NCBI GenBank assembly: GCA_030429765.1
Contig: JAUIER010000003.1
Span: forward strand, 80,402-144,401
DNA from: a bacterium
Lineage (GTDB): Bacteria > Omnitrophota > Gorgyraeia > Zapsychrales > Zapsychraceae
Direction: 5' to 3'
DNA: 64,000 nt
Shown here piece after piece: positions 4,704-57,427 of this stretch. The notes under the pieces were generated by a model. That model saw nothing but the letters and a program-made list of their open reading frames with translations. It made no database searches and had not been told where the DNA came from. The position numbers and the translations under genes were made by a program. Position 1 is the stretch's first letter. Each line of letters opens with the position of its first letter.

Positions 4704-5664
4704 AATTCTGATTATTTCATTGTCGAATATCGGTGATGTGATCTTGACGCTGCCGGTTGCTGATATATTACGCCGTGATTTCCCGGACGCGAAAATCTCG
4801 ATTGTCGTCGGGCCCAAGGTGAAGTCGTTGTTTAAGAATACGCAGGCCTTTGAACATGTGATCCCCTACAATAAACATCAATCTGTCGGCGAGAAGTTTA
4901 AGTGGATCATGAAACTGCGCAAATACCGATTTGATCTGGTGGTGGACTTGAGAAACTCGGCGATTCCATTTTTACTGTCACCCAAATATCGAACGCCTGT
5001 GGATATTTCATCCAAAAAATCCATACATATGCGGCTCAAGCATCTGAAGCGATTACGAACAGTTCATCCATTTACCGATGATCGTGCGCAGCCCCAAAGT
5101 CTTTACGTCTCAGACGACGACCGGCAGTTTGTGGATGAGACGTTGGAAAAATATGTGGGAGCGTCCAAACCTTTCGTGGTGATGTCGCCTGGATCAGCCG
5201 ATCAGGCCAAGCGCTGGTCCAAGAAGGGATTCGCCGAGGTTGCTGAATTCCTGACGCAGGAACACGGATTAAAAACCGTCTTCGTCGGTGATCGGGAGGA
5301 TCGGCAGGTTGTGCAGGCGATACGCAAACTTATGGACAGCGAACCGGTGGATTTATGCGGCCGCACGACGCTGATTCAAACAGCCGAGATTGTCCGTCGC
5401 AGCCGGATGGCTTTGGTCAACGATAGCGCTGTGCAACATTTGGCCAGTTATCTGGATGTGCCGGTGTTGGCCATTTTTGGCTATACCGATCCGCTCAAGT
5501 ATGGACCGTGGGGAACCCGCGGCGGATATCTGCAACCCCATGGCGTGGCCGGCAAAACTGAAGGGACGACCGAGGAGCGCGTGGCCTTAATCGAGAGTGT
5601 TCGGCCGGCGGATGTGATCCGCTGCATACAAATGCGCGAATCGGGTGTCAGGTTTTTGTTATGA
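4672..5664 (+). CDS. GT9-family glycosyltransferase (heptosyltransferase-like)
   Basis: The track start 4660 is a TTG and the first ATG is at 4672. Motifs: ILIISLSNIGDVILTLP, LVNDSAVQHLA, AIFGYT. Confidence 0.7.
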   Translation: MKPLNPSRIRRILIISLSNIGDVILTLPVADILRRDFPDAKISIVVGPKVKSLFKNTQAFEHVIPYNKHQSVGEKFKWIMKLRKYRFDLVVDLRNSAIPFLLSPKYRTPVDISSKKSIHMRLKHLKRLRTVHPFTDDRAQPQSLYVSDDDRQFVDETLEKYVGASKPFVVMSPGSADQAKRWSKKGFAEVAEFLTQEHGLKTVFVGDREDRQVVQAIRKLMDSEPVDLCGRTTLIQTAEIVRRSRMALVNDSAVQHLASYLDVPVLAIFGYTDPLKYGPWGTRGGYLQPHGVAGKTEGTTEERVALIESVRPADVIRCIQMRESGVRFLL

Positions 5665-6707
5665 CGCAGACGTTCAAGAATATTTTAATCATCCGGACGG
5701 ATCGTATCGGAGATGTGGTCCTGACAACACCATCGATCAAGGCGGTGCGAAAGGCCTATCCCGACGCTCGACTGTGTGTTCTGCTGGCACCTTTAACCTA
5801 TGATCTGCTAAACGGGATTGGTTTTGTCGACCGGCTATTCGTCGATGATCGACGGGGAGAGCACGCGGGAAATCTAGGTTTTTTCAAATTGGTCCGAAAA
5901 ATTCGACGGGAACGATTTGACCTGGTGATTAATTATCACACCAAGAAGCGTACAAATTTGATGGCGTTTCTGGCGGGCGTTCCGTACCGGTTGGGTTATC
6001 GCAACAACAAATGGGGCTTTTTATTGAATCATCCCGTCGAAGATTATCGTCATGAAGGTTTAAAGCACGAGGCCGCCTACTGTTTAGACCTGCTTAATGA
6101 GATCGGCATCAGCGATGCTGAATTAACTCCCGAAATCGCCTTGCTCGACGAATCCGTGGCCTGGGTCGATGATTTTCTGGGGCTTAACCAGATTGACGCG
6201 GGGGACAAGCTGATCGTGATTCATCCGTCGGCCAGCGATCCGGCCAAACAGTGGCCCGCCGAAAATTTTGTTGAACTGATCAACACCCTGGGAACGCGCA
6301 ACGCCGAACTCAAATTTGCCGTGATTGGAACGGCGGCCAATAGATCGCTGGCTGCTTCGATCGTCAAAGGCACCCGGCCGAAGGTGCTCGACACCACGGG
6401 TCTGCTGTCACTTAGCCAGATGGTCGCGCTCCTCAAGCGGGCCGATCTGCTGATATCCAATGATTCAGGGCCGGTTCATGTGGCCGCCGCCCTTCAAACA
6501 CCGGTGATATCCATCTTTACCCGGAATCAACCCGGGATCAATCCCACACGTTGGCAACCGCTTGGAGAGAGGTCGGCGTACGTAAGTGTTGATGCCGATC
6601 ACTCCAAATCCTTCAAAAAAGCCCAGAATTACGACCCAAAATCCATGCAACCGATTGCCGTTCAGACGGTTTTGCAAGCAGTTGACGCCCTTTGTAAACT
6701 ATGCTAG
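5661..6707 (+). CDS. GT9-family glycosyltransferase (heptosyltransferase-like)
   Basis: 348 aa with an ATGA overlap on the upstream stop. Motifs: ILIIRTDRIGDVVLTTP, ISNDSGPVHVAAA, SIFT. Confidence 0.75.
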   Translation: MTQTFKNILIIRTDRIGDVVLTTPSIKAVRKAYPDARLCVLLAPLTYDLLNGIGFVDRLFVDDRRGEHAGNLGFFKLVRKIRRERFDLVINYHTKKRTNLMAFLAGVPYRLGYRNNKWGFLLNHPVEDYRHEGLKHEAAYCLDLLNEIGISDAELTPEIALLDESVAWVDDFLGLNQIDAGDKLIVIHPSASDPAKQWPAENFVELINTLGTRNAELKFAVIGTAANRSLAASIVKGTRPKVLDTTGLLSLSQMVALLKRADLLISNDSGPVHVAAALQTPVISIFTRNQPGINPTRWQPLGERSAYVSVDADHSKSFKKAQNYDPKSMQPIAVQTVLQAVDALCKLC

Positions 6708-52527: not shown

Positions 52528-53091
52528 ATGATCTTAATGATAGACAACTACGATTCATTCACCTACAACCTGGTGCAGTATTTCGGTGAGCTGGGCGCGA
52601 ATCTCAAGGTGTACCGTAATGATATGATTTCGATTGAGGACATCCGCCGGATGCGGCCCAAAAAGATTGTGGTGTCGCCCGGGCCGAGTAATCCGGACCA
52701 TGCCGGGATTTCATTGGACGTCATCGACACGTTTAAAGGCAAGATTCCGATCCTCGGGGTATGTCTCGGACATCAATGTATGGGGCAGGCCTTCGGCGGC
52801 AAGATCATCCGGGCCAAAAAATTGATGCACGGTAAAACTTCAAAAATTAAACACGACGGCCAAGATTTATTCAAAGGCCTGGACAATCCGTTTGAAGCCA
52901 CGCGGTACCATTCGCTGGTGATCGAGCGCAAAAGCTGTCCCAAGTGTTTTGAGATTACGGCCTCGAGTGAAGACGGTGAGATTATGGGGATCCGTCATAA
53001 AGACTATCCGATGTGGGGCGTACAGTTTCATCCCGAGTCGATTTTGACCAAGGCGGGCAAACCGCTCTTGGGTAATTTTCTCAAACTATAG
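52528..53091 (+). CDS. trpG: Anthranilate synthase component II / aminodeoxychorismate synthase glutamine amidotransferase
   Basis: 187 aa. Motifs: MIDNYDSFTYNL, catalytic GVCLGHQ, QFHPES. It lies directly upstream of trpD. Confidence 0.85.
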   Translation: MILMIDNYDSFTYNLVQYFGELGANLKVYRNDMISIEDIRRMRPKKIVVSPGPSNPDHAGISLDVIDTFKGKIPILGVCLGHQCMGQAFGGKIIRAKKLMHGKTSKIKHDGQDLFKGLDNPFEATRYHSLVIERKSCPKCFEITASSEDGEIMGIRHKDYPMWGVQFHPESILTKAGKPLLGNFLKL

Positions 53092-53103
53092 GATGGGATC
53101 CAA

Positions 53104-54129
53104 ATGAGCCATACGATTCGTTCATACGTGGACAAGATCCACAATCATGAGAATTTGACGCAGGACGAGATCGAAGTTGTCATGCAGGACATCATGTCCG
53201 GCGAGTCCAACCGCGAAGATATTGCCAGTTTTTTGTTGGCGCTGCGCGAGAAAGGCCCGACGATCGATGAGATTACCGGGGCGGCCCGGATTATGCGCCG
53301 GCATCTGGTCGGCGTGAATACCGTACACAAAGATATTCTTGATACGTGCGGGACCGGCGGTGACAAGACCAATACGTTCAATATCTCGACGGTGACGGCC
53401 CTGGTGGTGGCCGGAGCGGGGGCGGTCGTGGCCAAGCACGGAAATCGGTCGGTGTCGAGTAAGTGCGGTTCGGCCGATATTCTCGAAGCGCTCGATGTCA
53501 ATCTGGATATGGATACCTCCCGTCTGAACGCGTGTCTGGACGAAGTCGGCATCGCTTTTCTGTTTGCGCAAAAACTGCATCCGGCGATGAAGAATGTCGC
53601 GCCTGTGCGTAAGGAATTGGGTGTCGAGACGATCTTTAATCTGCTTGGGCCGTTGACGAATCCGGCCAATGCCACGCATCAGATGATCGGTGTGTACGCG
53701 CGTAAATATGTCAAGCCGATGGTGCAGGTGTTGAAGAACCTGGGATCCAAACGGGCATTGGTTGTGCATGGCGCGGACGGACTGGATGAGATCACAACGA
53801 CCGACAAGACATTTATCTGTGAGTACAACGGCGAGGAGATTTTTTCGTACGATATCGATCCCGACGAATTAGGCATACCGTTCGCCAAGCCTGAAGATCT
53901 CAAAGGCGGTCATCTGGAAGACAATGTCAGAATTGTCCGCGAGATCCTCGACGGAGCGCCCGGACCGAAAAGGGATATCGTTCTGTTGAATTCGGCGTAC
54001 GCGTTGTATATCAGCGAGAAGGCGGCGAATATTGAAGATGGTTTACAGATGGCGCGTGATTCGATCGACAGTGGAAAGGCCAAGGCCAAGCTGGCACAAC
54101 TAAGGGATTTTACCCATGAGCGGACATGA
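53104..54129 (+). CDS. trpD: Anthranilate phosphoribosyltransferase
   Basis: 341 aa. Motifs: [38 protein letters not shown]-like region, LGPLTNPA. Confidence 0.95.
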   Translation: [341 protein letters not shown]

Positions 54130-54907
54130 TTTTCTGCAGGAGATCGTCGAGTACAAAAAAGAATGCAACCGCTTAAAGGCGGAGTACTACACGGCGATTC
54201 GCAACAAGATTGATCTCTCCGAATACTGCCGTTACGGGGTCTTTGCCAAGTCGGTGGGACGCGAAGGGCAGGTTAATCTGATCGCTGAGATCAAGAAGGC
54301 CTCGCCGTCCAAAGGGGTGATCCGTGAGCCGTTTGATGTGCTCGAGATCGCCAAGACATACACCGAACACAAGGCGGCGGCCATCTCTGTTCTCACCGAA
54401 GACAAATATTTTTTAGGACGACCGGATTACGTCAAGAAGGTCAGCGAACAGTTTACGGTGCCGGTCCTGATGAAGGACTTTTTCATTCATGAAAACCAGA
54501 TCTACGAGGCGCTGGTCAAGGGGGCCAGTGCGATCCTGCTGATTTGCGCGATACTCTCCGATGAGCAGTTAAAGCAATTATTGTCGGTGGCGAACGCTTT
54601 GGACCTGGACTGTCTGGTCGAGACGCATGATGAGACCGAGGTCAAGCGGGCGATTGACGTCGGCGCCGAGATCATCGGGGTGAACAATCGCGATCTACAT
54701 ACATTTGAGGTGTCGATGCAGACGAGTCTGGATTTGATCCCCAAGATTCCCCGGGATCGAATCGCGGTCGCCGAGAGCGGGATCCGGACCAACGCGGACA
54801 TTCGGCAGCTCAAAGAGGTGGGGGCCAAGGCGGTTTTAATTGGAGAAACATTTATGCGCGCAGAGGACATCGGCGCCAAGGTTGACGAGATTATGTCAGG
54901 CGGCTAA
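54116..54907 (+). CDS. trpC: Indole-3-glycerol-phosphate synthase
   Basis: 263 aa. Motifs: IAEIKKASPSKG, ISVLTEDKYF, IIGVNNRDL. Confidence 0.9.
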   Translation: MSGHDFLQEIVEYKKECNRLKAEYYTAIRNKIDLSEYCRYGVFAKSVGREGQVNLIAEIKKASPSKGVIREPFDVLEIAKTYTEHKAAAISVLTEDKYFLGRPDYVKKVSEQFTVPVLMKDFFIHENQIYEALVKGASAILLICAILSDEQLKQLLSVANALDLDCLVETHDETEVKRAIDVGAEIIGVNNRDLHTFEVSMQTSLDLIPKIPRDRIAVAESGIRTNADIRQLKEVGAKAVLIGETFMRAEDIGAKVDEIMSGG

Positions 54908-54922
54908 CACGGAGGAAGAGGA

Positions 54923-55537
54923 ATGACGATGAAAGTTAAGATGTGTGGGATTACCAATCATGAAGACGCGCAGAAGGCGGTTTATTACGGGGCCTATGCC
55001 GTCGGATTTATTTTTCATAAAAAAAGTCCGCGCTACGTATCACCGAGTAAAGCGCGAAAATTAATCGAAGGATTGCCGCCGTTTATCGTGCCGGTCGGTG
55101 TCTTCGTTGATCTCAAGGAAAAGGCGGTGCGGGATATCTGCAAGTTCACCCGGATCAAGACGGTCCAGTTTCACGGTGATGAAAAGCCGATCTACTGCAA
55201 GCGCTTTTCCGATTACAAGATCATCAAGGCCTTTCGGGTCAATGACATGTTTGATTTTGTCGGCGTCAAGAAGTACAAGGTCGACGCCTATCTGTTTGAT
55301 ACCTACCAGGAAAATGTCCTTGGGGGGACGGGAAAGACGTTCAACTGGGACCTGCTCAAAGGGCATAAGTTTGATAAACCCGTCATTCTCTCCGGCGGAT
55401 TGACCTCATCCAATGTGGCCGAAGGGATCGCCGCGGTGGATCCGTACGCCGTGGATGTCTCCAGCGGCATCGAGAAGTCGCCGGGGATCAAGGATCCCCG
55501 CAAAATCCGGGCGTTCATGAAGGCCCTGGACGTCTAA
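54923..55537 (+). CDS. trpF: Phosphoribosylanthranilate isomerase
   Basis: 204 aa. Motifs: VKMCGIT, QFHGDE, ILSGGL. An alternative start is ATG 54929. Confidence 0.9.
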   Translation: MTMKVKMCGITNHEDAQKAVYYGAYAVGFIFHKKSPRYVSPSKARKLIEGLPPFIVPVGVFVDLKEKAVRDICKFTRIKTVQFHGDEKPIYCKRFSDYKIIKAFRVNDMFDFVGVKKYKVDAYLFDTYQENVLGGTGKTFNWDLLKGHKFDKPVILSGGLTSSNVAEGIAAVDPYAVDVSSGIEKSPGIKDPRKIRAFMKALDV

Positions 55538-55659: not shown

Positions 55660-55688
55660 TTGTCCCCTGTGGATAACTATGTTATATT
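55660..55688 (+). promoter_or_regulatory. Sigma70-like promoter candidate driving the structured RNA
   Basis: TTGTCC (55660-55665), a 17-nt spacer, then TATATT (55683-55688). The 5' arm of the RNA closing helix starts 6-7 nt downstream. Confidence 0.45.
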
Positions 55689-55693
55689 TGAAT

Positions 55694-55928
55694 TAAGCCG
55701 ATAAAGGTAAACCCGGGGAAACCCGGGGACTTTCGAGTCTTACCGACTTGGAACTGCGCGGTTATGAGGCGCGCGGACAAAACCAACAGACCTAAATTGT
55801 TAACGACTACGAGGCCCGTTCGGGCGTTCAGCGCCGGGGCACACAATCCAAGCAGAAGAGTCTAGGACAAGATGGTGGCTGGGTTGCCGAAGTGCGGTGA
55901 GGGAGACATCCTCATCTTTATCGGCTTA
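55694..55928 (+). ncRNA. Unassigned structured RNA candidate (~235 nt core)
   Basis: The ends pair over 12-15 bp (55694-55708 TAAGCCGATAAAGGT with 55914-55928 ATCTTTATCGGCTTA). Internal hairpins are: CCCGGG-GAAA-CCCGGG (55712-55727, built from the tandem 10-mer AAACCCGGGG x2); CGAGTC/GACTTG (55734-55750); CTGCGCG/CGCGCGG (55754-55776); GCCC...GGCG-TTCAG-CGCC...GGGC (55814-55840); and GGTGAGG/CCTCATC (55896-55916). No credible ORF is present. A promoter lies upstream and a terminator downstream. Confidence 0.45.
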
Positions 55929-55947
55929 TTTTTCTCTCTTACCCATA

Positions 55948-55978
55948 CCGTAAAAACACCCGTTTTTGCGGTTTTTTT
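55948..55978 (+). terminator. Rho-independent terminator
   Basis: CCGTAAAAAC-ACCC-GTTTTTGCGG forms a 10-bp stem with one G-U pair, followed by TTTTTTT (55972-55978). Confidence 0.75.
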
Positions 55979-56006
55979 GTGTCTACGGTGTTGGTTCTGG
56001 TAGAAT
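55977..56006 (+). promoter_or_regulatory. Extended -10 promoter candidate for the two-gene cassette
   Basis: TGgTAGAAT (TG at 55998-55999, hexamer at 56001-56006) with a weak -35 TTGTGT (55977-55982) and an 18-nt spacer. Confidence 0.3.
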
Positions 56007-56105
56007 AGTAGGAATTAACTGCGCGGGGCTTCACGAACTTCCAATCCTGCAGCAGTTTTTCCAGTGTGATTAAGCAAGCAAAATTAAGAAATATTTCGAT
56101 TGTAA

Positions 56106-56492
56106 ATGACTAACAATTCAATATTTTCATTTCCTCCTGATTTTGAAGTGGAGTATAAATTTTTGACAGTGGACGAGGCCGGTAGAAAAACTGGAACTCC
56201 CTTTCAGGGTTACCGGAGCAATTGGCTATATGAAGGGGATGACCCAATTGCCGACGGCATTTATATGATTCATCCTGAATTTCTGGATGAAGACGGAAAA
56301 AGTTTTCAAAAGAATAGGAAGGTTCCTGCAAAAGGCCTGGCCAGAATGGTAGTAGTCAATCCAGCTAAGAGACCTTATCATCAAAAGAAAATAAAAGTTG
56401 GAACAAGAGGTTTTTTTGTCGAGGGAAATCGGAAAGTGGCAATGGCAACCGTAACGAAGGTGCTTGGTTTGCATACCAATAAAACAACTTAG
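56106..56492 (+). CDS. Free-standing EF-Tu domain III-like protein
   Basis: 128 aa. [28 protein letters not shown] and the C-terminal [23 protein letters not shown] align by eye with EF-Tu domain III, as I recall the E. coli sequence. There is no G domain and no domain II. Codon usage looks A+T-rich. Confidence 0.5.
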   Translation: [128 protein letters not shown]

Positions 56493-56542
56493 TAGAAAAT
56501 TCTCATTCCATAACAGGGATAGGATTTTTCAAAGATAATTGA

Positions 56543-57247
56543 ATGACGTATATTAGAATTTTTGCCTTGGTGCTTAGCGTTATTTTAACGGCCGGGTGTG
56601 CTACCGTTGTTCGGGATCAATTACCGGCAGTCCAAAAATTTTCGACATCTGAGGAAGCTTTCAGCGTATACGTGCTGAATCATGGATGGCATACAGGACT
56701 GGTGATCAGGCGTTCTGATATCCCTGACCATCTTTGTCCCGAAAGTGAAGATTTTGCTAAGTATGAGTATCTCGAAATTGGATGGGGCGATCAAGGTTTT
56801 TACCAGGCTCAGAAAATCACTTTGGGTATTACTATCCGGGCGATCTTTTGGCCGTCCAAAAGCGTACTACATGTGGTGGGATTTAATGGGTCAGTTGAGG
56901 CATATTTTGAAACCAGTGATATTGTACGAGTTGATCTTTCGGAACAGGGATTTAACAAAATATGCATGTTTATTCATGAAACGTTCAAGAGGGAGCAGGT
57001 TGATCTACGAGCTTCGTCTATCGGACCGGGTTTGTACGGGGATAGTAAATTCTACAGAGCTCGCGGGAGATACTACTTTCCTAAAACGTGTAATGTTTGG
57101 ACCGCAAGGGCCCTACGTAAAGGTGGTTGTCCGATAACACCTATTTACGCTGTGACATCCGGCAATACGCTGAATCAGACCAAGAAGTTTGGAGTAATTG
57201 TTAGGGAGTTCCTAGAGTCGTATAAAGCTTCAGGTAGAAAAAAATAA
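56543..57247 (+). CDS. DUF2459/TIGR02117-like lipoprotein
   Basis: 234 aa. Lipobox LTAGC. The motifs NHGWHTGLVI, LEIGWGDQGFY and YYFPKTCNVWTARALRKGGCP match my memory of the DUF2459 family. Confidence 0.55.
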   Translation: MTYIRIFALVLSVILTAGCATVVRDQLPAVQKFSTSEEAFSVYVLNHGWHTGLVIRRSDIPDHLCPESEDFAKYEYLEIGWGDQGFYQAQKITLGITIRAIFWPSKSVLHVVGFNGSVEAYFETSDIVRVDLSEQGFNKICMFIHETFKREQVDLRASSIGPGLYGDSKFYRARGRYYFPKTCNVWTARALRKGGCPITPIYAVTSGNTLNQTKKFGVIVREFLESYKASGRKK

Positions 57248-57354
57248 GTGGATGGTCGAAGTCTCTCCAATCTTGAAAGAATTGGTATCAGAAATCCCTA
57301 AAGTAAAGCAGGGCATAAGTTTAGGTCGTAATTCATTATATTAGCGAAGAGGCC

Positions 57355-57399
57355 TGTCCCTTTTCGGGGACTGTCCCCTTTGGGGGAGCCGTTCGGGCT
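57355..57399 (+). other. Cluster of three short GC-rich hairpins between the cassette and the giant ORF
   Basis: GTCCC-TTTTCG-GGGAC (57356-57371), TCCCC-TTT-GGGGG (57374-57386) and AGCC-GTTCG-GGCT (57387-57399). No U-tract follows. They may terminate or insulate the cassette transcript. Confidence 0.3.
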
Positions 57400-57427
57400 T
57401 GCCTATAATACTAATATATCGTATAAT
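57399..57427 (+). promoter_or_regulatory. Sigma70-like promoter candidate for the giant ORF
   Basis: TTGCCT (57399-57404), a 17-nt spacer, then the consensus TATAAT (57422-57427). A second TATAAT lies at 57404-57409. Confidence 0.35.

Follow-up and report, generated by a model that had tools for sequence, protein, structure and literature searches.

Riboswitches of the cyclic di-GMP-I (c-di-GMP-I) class, also called GEMM-I and represented in the Rfam database by RF01051, are exemplified by Vc2 of Vibrio cholerae. Weinberg et al. (2007, PMC1950547) defined the class by a 2-bp and a 6-bp stem with a 3-nucleotide (nt) internal loop and a GNRA loop, an AAA linker, and a second hairpin that bears a receptor. 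The ligand is contacted by residues G20, A47, and C92 in Vc2 numbering (PMC11218506). Three described systems come close to the RNA reported here. The merRNA of Bdellovibrio bacteriovorus is an orphan c-di-GMP-I aptamer RNA that has no conserved downstream open reading frame (ORF) and has been proposed to buffer or store c-di-GMP (PMC3627812). In the Bc1 riboswitch of Bacillus thuringiensis, an upstream terminator is ligand sensitive, and its response is hidden by a downstream terminator that remains folded (PMC11218506). Finally, Vc2 acting as a 3′ riboswitch stabilizes upstream small RNAs (sRNAs) (bioRxiv 10.1101/617340). Here, we analyzed a 64,000-nt stretch of an Omnitrophota genome (contig JAUIER010000003.1, positions 80,402 to 144,401; here referred to as the window), in which an original prediction made from the sequence alone had placed a structured RNA of no assigned family between the trpF gene and the next ORF. 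We are confident that this RNA is an enlarged member of the c-di-GMP-I class. The evidence also tips the balance, by a modest amount, toward the fuller reading that it is a stand-alone c-di-GMP-sensing RNA whose two ends form a clamp that switches against the ligand pocket.

The window RNA has in common with RF01051 members such as Vc2 the J1/2 segment (...AUAAAGG), the 2-bp plus 6-bp hairpin with its AAA loop and GAAA, the AAA linker, the receptor hairpin, and the GCCGAA tail. In contrast to them, it adds a four-way junction, a lengthening of the receptor hairpin (P3) by about 75 nt, a further hairpin (P4), and a clamp of 13 to 15 bp; it also has its own predicted promoter and terminator, no evident regulated gene, and a subthreshold Rfam score. 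It resembles merRNA in carrying a c-di-GMP-I aptamer on a noncoding RNA, and the merRNA host is predatory. Omnitrophota are reported to include predatory or host-dependent members. However, merRNA is 445 nt long and was defined by its massive expression, whereas the window RNA is a predicted transcript; no clamp is described for merRNA, and the two RNAs have no sequence relation beyond the aptamer. As in Bc1, the expression platform is long and contains two terminator-like elements, but T1 of Bc1 is an ordinary local hairpin, whereas the upstream element of the window RNA is a helix formed over a long range, with the entire aptamer inside it; moreover, Bc1 sits in the 5′-untranslated region of an mcp gene. 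The Vc2-sRNA arrangement likewise places a c-di-GMP-I aptamer in a small noncoding transcript, and there the ligand alters what becomes of the RNA itself, beyond any effect on downstream transcription. In that case, however, the aptamer lies at the 3′ end and no terminator plays a part, whereas the window RNA opens with its aptamer and has a terminator downstream of it. The novelty lies chiefly in the 5′-end clamp on a self-contained unit in Omnitrophota, and further in the insert that makes a four-way junction and in the lengthened receptor hairpin; in the literature searched, we found no description of a four-way-junction GEMM-I, of the enlarged receptor hairpin, or of a 5′-end clamp.

The identity of the RNA was recognized because a scan of viral contigs with its 5′ pattern returned one canonical GEMM-I riboswitch (75.5 bits) that is nearly base for base like the window RNA outside two insertions; the same scan with the 3′ block of the RNA found nothing. 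In a relaxed Rfam search, the 5′ part (55697-55748) matched the c-di-GMP-I clan model RF03167 at 25.2 bits, and nt 55775-55897, searched alone, matched positions 32-87 of RF01051 at 21.6 bits and exactly in the predicted register; these are half-matches only, and the window RNA stays below the RF01051 gathering threshold of 35 bits. Its homologues in other Omnitrophota contigs and in metagenomic loci (given here as L numbers) scored higher over their full length, reaching 42.6 bits in L028 and 68.4 bits in L043 with RF01051 (34.3 bits, just under the threshold of 35, in L002 and 25.8 bits in L018), and 69.3 and 65.0 bits, both above threshold, in L041 and L046 with RF03167. The original prediction had not considered the c-di-GMP-I riboswitch, and its label of an unassigned RNA was not borne out: by its own account, a confident Rfam hit would make the RNA known rather than novel, and we assign the RNA to a known rather than a new class because homologues pass the curated thresholds. 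The class model misses the window RNA itself because of the inserted pair of hairpins, the receptor-hairpin extension of about 75 nt, and the 3′ extension. It follows more generally that covariance-model annotation can miss true riboswitch members with inserted peripheral domains, which then look like novel noncoding RNAs. The parts of the aptamer and its insertions are as follows.

55699-55700 with 55888-55889, + strand: canonical short P1, in which C55888 and G55889 pair with G55700 and C55699 by alignment to the model
55701-55706, + strand: J1/2, which includes the G20 equivalent G55706 by alignment to the model
55707-55708 with 55777-55778, + strand: 2-bp stem (G55707-C55778, U55708-A55777), which closes the four-way junction
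55707-55778, + strand: four-way junction, composed of the 2-bp stem, the AAA loop, the GAAA hairpin, GAC at 55728-55730, and the hairpins Pa and Pb
55712-55727, + strand: first hairpin, a 6-bp CCCGGG/CCCGGG stem with a GAAA tetraloop, separated from the 2-bp stem by the AAA internal loop
55731-55753, + strand: inserted hairpin Pa
55754-55776, + strand: inserted hairpin Pb (CUGCGCG/CGCGCGG)
55779-55781, + strand: AAA linker, with A55779 as the A47 equivalent
55781-55792 with 55874-55885, + strand: 5′ and 3′ strands of the receptor hairpin, from the RF01051 alignment
55791-55796 with 55871-55875, + strand: tetraloop receptor, CCUAAA with GAUGG, aligned to the RF01051 columns CUAAg / uAuG
55797-55871, + strand: distal extension of the receptor hairpin, about 75 nt
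55886-55891, + strand: aptamer 3′ tail GCCGAA, with C55887 as the C92 equivalent

The window RNA thus has the stems, loop, linker, and receptor by which GEMM RNAs are defined, and it departs from them by two hairpins on the 3′ side of the internal loop. Its receptor, CCUAAA/GAUGG, resembles the classical 11-nt receptor and is not identical to it. The three ligand-contacting positions are the canonical G, A, and C (G55706, A55779, and C55887). The clan model RF03167 (c-di-GMP-I-GGC) is defined by G instead of A at position 47, with which its GCGAAg consensus is consistent; this position is A not only in the window RNA but also in L041 and L046, despite their RF03167 scores, and none of the three thus carries the defining residue. 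The GEMM-Ib riboswitches for 3′,3′-cyclic GMP-AMP (cGAMP) presumably have A at position 20, where the window RNA has G. The view that this is an undescribed sRNA class unrelated to known families, as first proposed, draws on the absence of any Rfam match at gathering score in the whole window. Set against it are the half-matches in register, the homologues above curated thresholds, the nucleotide-level match of the core, and covariation, and we give this view next to no chance. The trpB motif (RF04312), tempting beside trp genes, was rejected: it scored 28.5 bits (E = 0.079), mostly driven by the terminator, and belongs to the wrong phyla, the motif being a hairpin plus terminator of Firmicutes and Fusobacteria with a gathering score of 59 bits (PMC11109978). 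The exclusion of transfer-messenger RNA (tmRNA), RNase P RNA, signal recognition particle RNA, 6S RNA, and T-box elements, made in the original prediction from the absence of hallmark motifs, agreed with our Rfam searches and with ARAGORN, which returned no tRNA or tmRNA.

The description of a structured noncoding RNA with its own promoter and terminator also stood, and every feature listed for it was found in place. The RNA region holds only short ORFs of 31 to 54 amino acids (aa), and the substitutions in relatives are helix compensatory, in keeping with the absence of a credible ORF from the gap. The minimum-free-energy fold of the window RNA (−108.8 kcal/mol, z = −4.5) was not equaled in stability by any of 200 dinucleotide shuffles, and it contains the GAAA-tetraloop hairpin at 55712-55727 as well as the GC-rich hairpins at 55731-55753 and 55754-55776. 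The conservation check proposed with the original prediction gave a core 76% identical in two metagenome-assembled genomes (MAGs) of Candidatus Omnitrophota, L001 and L002, with compensatory changes in the variable hairpins. Conservation with these relatives begins and ends at the helix that closes the RNA, which we predict to be a discrete small transcript of about 235 to 285 nt. A decaying, functionless riboswitch relic would fit the recent insertion next to the RNA and the downstream gene context, which differs between lineages. It is nevertheless very improbable, since blocks of 37 and 43 nt are invariant among the window, L001, and L002 against the overall core identity of 76%, every helix shows compensatory changes, and promoter, clamp, and terminator are kept in eight lineages (the terminator itself in seven of the eight).

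The four-way junction and the clamp were compared across 30 loci recovered in a single pattern scan of metagenomes. The insertion point of Pa and Pb lies after GAC and before the 3′ half of the 2-bp stem. In 17 of 18 loci, the inserted sequence forms precisely two hairpins, which abut with no linker between them. Across the insert, the junction is closed without exception by C-G (10 loci) or U-A (7 loci), and a regular-expression count agrees. Covariation was examined in a gapless alignment of concatenated core segments from 17 loci, used because MAFFT alignments of the full RNAs misplace the variable hairpins. Here, 97.1% of the cells were paired versus 72.6% after shuffling (0 of 500 shuffles reached the observed values), 21 of 28 pairs changed on both sides, and slid controls gave at most 52% pairing; as the Pa, Pb, and P3 segments had been picked by pairing, and P2 and the 2-bp stem had not, the test is partly circular. 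Among the lineages, compensatory changes were also found in the basal and distal helices of the receptor hairpin and in P4, which follows the aptamer tail. The four-way-junction subclass occurs in at least 17 metagenomic loci, including L013, L020, L021, L023-L027, L031-L033, L035, L036, L038, and L040, several of which pass the Rfam threshold and would be annotated as ordinary c-di-GMP-I riboswitches.

An insert at this place raises the question of whether c-di-GMP is indeed the ligand. Pa and Pb adjoin the binding junction, lying between GAC and the 2-bp stem at 2 nt from the A47 equivalent, and could alter specificity. Variant GEMM-I classes with altered pocket nucleotides are represented in Rfam (RF03167 and RF03168), and a cGAMP-binding GEMM-I variant exists. 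The canonical G, A, and C at all three ligand-contacting positions speak against a change of ligand, as do L041, L043, and L046, which lack the insert and share their genomic locus with the insert-bearing L028. Because these insert-free members with a clamp sit at the locus of L028, the insert looks like a peripheral addition, and we consider another ligand improbable.

The original prediction had joined the ends of the RNA core by a closing helix. The pairing exists, with 15 of 15 pairs formed between 55694-55708 and 55914-55928; what we do not retain is its reading as a simple terminal stem. A clamp in competition with the ligand pocket is the better description. The elements involved are as follows.

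55694-55708, + strand: clamp 5′ strand, which contains the P1 5′ strand (C55699 and G55700), J1/2 with G55706, and G55707 and U55708
55914-55928, + strand: clamp 3′ strand, AUCUUUAUCGGCUUA, the Watson-Crick complement of the first 15 nt of the transcript
55896-55916, + strand: P4 hairpin, GGUGAGGG-AGACA-UCCUCAUC, whose last 3 nt (AUC, 55914-55916) are the innermost part of the clamp 3′ strand
55929-55933, + strand: U-run after the clamp, a possible weak first terminator (T1)

In solved GEMM-I structures, the pocket is built from the nucleotides of the P1 5′ strand, J1/2, G20, and the 2-bp stem, and these nucleotides are free of Watson-Crick pairing. Because the 5′ strand of the clamp holds these pocket nucleotides, the clamp and the ligand pocket should exclude each other. 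The clamp duplex of the window RNA has an energy of about −20 kcal/mol (z = −5.2), and values between −18.8 and −22.9 kcal/mol were obtained across eight Omnitrophota lineages, namely the window, L001/2, L012/16, L018, L028, L041, L043, and L046/47. In the five of them tested by shuffling (the window, L001/2, L012/16, L018, and L028), the energies ranged from −19.6 to −21.9 kcal/mol with z values of −5 to −8. By comparison, 24 other GEMM-I loci from the same scan had no clamp, their duplexes being at −13.8 kcal/mol or weaker with z near 0. Clamp position 19 changes in a compensatory manner, with A19-U in six lineages and G19-C in two: J1/2 reads AAGGG rather than AAAGG in L041 and L046, and the opposite clamp strand has C in place of U. 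The top pair of the clamp also varies (U-A, U-G, or C-G). The tail GCCGAA is present in all eight lineages.

Three of these lineages were reached by synteny. In L028, also from Omnitrophota, the gene order is a hydrogenase cluster, a peptidoglycan (PG)-binding protein, the RNA, a GH1 glycosidase, and a cNMP/patatin protein, and tracing this order led to L041, L043, and L046/47, in which the clamp is kept and Pa and Pb are absent. These compact clamp RNAs of about 140 to 195 nt (L041, 18700-18900; L043, 19880-20110; L046/L047, 18640-18850) lie between the genes for the PG-binding protein and GH1, downstream of an Mbh/Mrp-type hydrogenase cluster.

The overlap between the clamp and P4 looks like a strand-exchange switch in the predicted folds. 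In seven of the eight lineages, the innermost 3 to 11 nt of the clamp strand can pair locally instead and extend P4, and their local partner is a purine-rich segment that imitates J1/2 (GGU, AAGGU, or GAUAAGG). By nearest-neighbor energies, the clamped fold reaches −95.0 kcal/mol versus −72.4 kcal/mol with the aptamer core enforced. Since the clamped fold is thus more stable by about 23 kcal/mol, the pocket could compete only through tertiary contacts and ligand, or kinetically. The clamp would tie up the P1 5′ strand, J1/2, the G20 equivalent, and the 2-bp stem, leaving no pocket. As its 3′ strand would be the final part to be transcribed, some 25 nt behind the aptamer tail, c-di-GMP would be captured mainly on the nascent RNA. 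Upon capture, the inner clamp strand would go into the local P4, and if no ligand were captured, the clamp would zip shut. The outcome would be two conformers of a stand-alone RNA, whose output might be buffering or timing of the second messenger, RNA stability, or action in trans.

The ends of the transcript bear on whether the RNA stands alone. The promoter of the original prediction is sigma-70-like and was recovered at 55660-55688 (+ strand) as TTGTCC, a 17-nt spacer, and TATATT, the −10 element being extended by a preceding TG. Matches to such a consensus are expected by chance at 3.1 per 2 kb; a promoter-like −35/−10 pair lies at the same place in all eight lineages (read from the sequence, with the scan confirming that of L028 only). 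In all eight, the −10 element ends 6 to 7 nt before AGCC, and for this reason the predicted start falls on the first nucleotides of the clamp (about 55694-55696). The predicted intrinsic terminator was likewise found on the + strand, at 55947-55979, with an 11-bp stem (55947-55972), a 4-nt loop, and U7. This terminator, T2, follows the clamp by about 10 to 20 nt in seven of the eight lineages, with sequences that differ between them, and in the four lineages tested it stays in every predicted fold, whether the clamp is open or closed; no antiterminator for it was found in these four. The L012 RNA (503-756, − strand), located downstream of cas1, has no T2; its U6 run leads into a long extended hairpin that lacks a U-tract.

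The main rival is a classical cis riboswitch. It would take the clamp and the following U-run as a ligand-sensitive T1 and T2 as leaky, so that c-di-GMP, by blocking the clamp, would increase read-through into ORF128/DUF2459 in the window, the giant secreted-protein gene in L001/L002, and the GH1 gene in L028, L041, L043, and L046. It accords with the 5′ regulatory position of GEMM-I riboswitches in 297 of 309 cases and their terminators that compete with the aptamer (PMC1950547), with the ligand-sensitive T1 and constitutive T2 of Bc1 (PMC11218506), with a downstream gene on the same strand as the RNA in every lineage where this is readable, and with a U-rich run after the clamp in several lineages, including the U6 run without T2 in L012. 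However, T2 is strong, and none of its nucleotides take part in the alternative pairings that were predicted. The 8 nt after the clamp contain 3 to 6 U residues across lineages and are U-rich in the window, L001, and L012, but the 3 to 4 residues of L018, L043, and L046 make a poor run; this weakened the candidate of clamp plus U-run as a universal first terminator and leaves the clamp at best an inconsistent one.

The downstream genes argue further against cis control. They are unrelated in function between lineages (an inserted cassette, a giant protein, a GH1 glycosidase, or an M20 peptidase preceded by a small protein), and in most lineages they have their own promoter-like sequences, such as TTGACA-17-TAAAAT in L012. 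The GH1 genes (L028 7523-7552, − strand; L041, L043, and L046) show TATAAT 6 to 9 nt before the ATG, and in three of the four lineages no Shine-Dalgarno sequence is visible before the start codon; together, these two features of the sequence suggest that the GH1 mRNAs are leaderless. As read from the sequence, L046 has a further terminator-like hairpin and U-run between the RNA and the GH1 gene. On this evidence, we consider cis control fairly unlikely.

The original prediction had left the choice between a stand-alone sRNA and a leader of the downstream cassette. The former is better supported, and the latter fell because the cassette is specific to the window genome. This cassette consists of two genes (56106-57247), ORF128 without a Pfam match and a DUF2459 protein, situated between the RNA and the giant gene. 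It lies in a region of 1.4 kb and low GC content (55980-57390; 0.39-0.45), between the RNA terminator and the promoter-like sequence of the giant gene, and it is an insertion absent from L001 and L002. An ORF does begin at 56106, as stated, but it is not the sole next gene, the cassette being followed by the giant gene from 57478. In L001/L002, the giant gene follows the RNA and its terminator after about 90 nt. A leader of the giant gene is made less attractive by the conserved promoter-like sequence of that gene itself (TTGCCT-17-TATAAT at 57395-57423 in the window, TTGCCA-17-TATACT in L002), which stayed beside it despite the 1.4-kb insertion. Transcription is thus predicted to start at the clamp and to end at a ligand-independent terminator, and the unrelated downstream genes carry separate promoter-like sequences. 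From sequence and predicted folds, the most probable role of the RNA is that of a stand-alone sensor of c-di-GMP with two conformers, for which merRNA and the Vc2-containing sRNAs are precedents.

Several points weigh against this reading of a clamp-switched, stand-alone RNA and hold our confidence in it to the modest level given at the outset. Promoters, terminators, and transcript ends are predictions throughout. Should the clamped fold prevail at equilibrium, the mature RNA would serve poorly as a sponge for c-di-GMP. The clamp varies only at position 19 and at its top pair, and most of its pairs are uninformative either way because the 5′ strand is constrained by the aptamer. A motif scan of the ORFs in the 64-kb window, uninformative by its nature, showed no GGDEF/EAL enzymes. 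To these are added the failure to reach the Rfam gathering score, the partly circular pairing test, the co-oriented downstream genes, and the prevalence of cis regulation among GEMM-I riboswitches. If the stand-alone reading is true, this would be the second c-di-GMP aptamer, after the Bdellovibrio merRNA, to serve as an independent RNA, and it would offer a handle on second-messenger signaling in the uncultivated phylum Omnitrophota. A bolder version, which we advance only tentatively and with more doubt than belief, is that these RNAs form an Omnitrophota family of orphan c-di-GMP "latch" RNAs that capture the ligand only before the 3′ clamp strand is transcribed. Each transcript would be locked in one of two long-lived states, either clamped without ligand or open and loaded, and the transcripts together would store the second messenger, keep time, or regulate in trans instead of switching a nearby gene. 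In that event, a merRNA-like strategy would have arisen independently in a second bacterial group.

Upstream of the RNA, the window contains prfA, a further ORF, aroA, trpG, trpD, trpC, and trpF. The window trpF shares 86-87% identity with those of the MAGs L001 and L002. Divergence along the trp operon (window 52528-55537 versus L001/L002) is uneven, with identities of 86-87% for TrpF, 58% for TrpC, 69% for TrpD, 79% for TrpG, and 75% for AroA, a pattern that could reflect recombination near the RNA locus. In L001, trpF and the RNA are separated by an additional gene of 527 aa, which runs on the opposite strand (4796-6379, − strand) and is absent from L002 and the window. Exact-protein lookups for trpF and ORF128 returned no record.

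The giant secreted-protein gene runs from 57478 beyond 64000, off the end of the window, and encodes more than 2,174 aa with a signal-peptide-like start and a His_Phos_1 domain at aa 1986-2161. Its N-terminal 350 aa or so belong to a very large family, with more than 1,300 matches at 43-55% identity, of which the named ones are from Omnitrophota. Elsewhere, this domain is fused to varied C-terminal domains, including ankyrin, HAD, glycosyltransferase, kinase, and others. Synteny tracing through it was dropped, as the paralogous family is huge (more than 1,300 matches at about 50% identity). Finally, an exact 10-mer, AACTGCGCGG, occurs twice, at 55752-55761 inside the RNA at the Pa/Pb boundary and at 56017-56026 just past the terminator at the edge of the cassette; this repetition may be due to chance.

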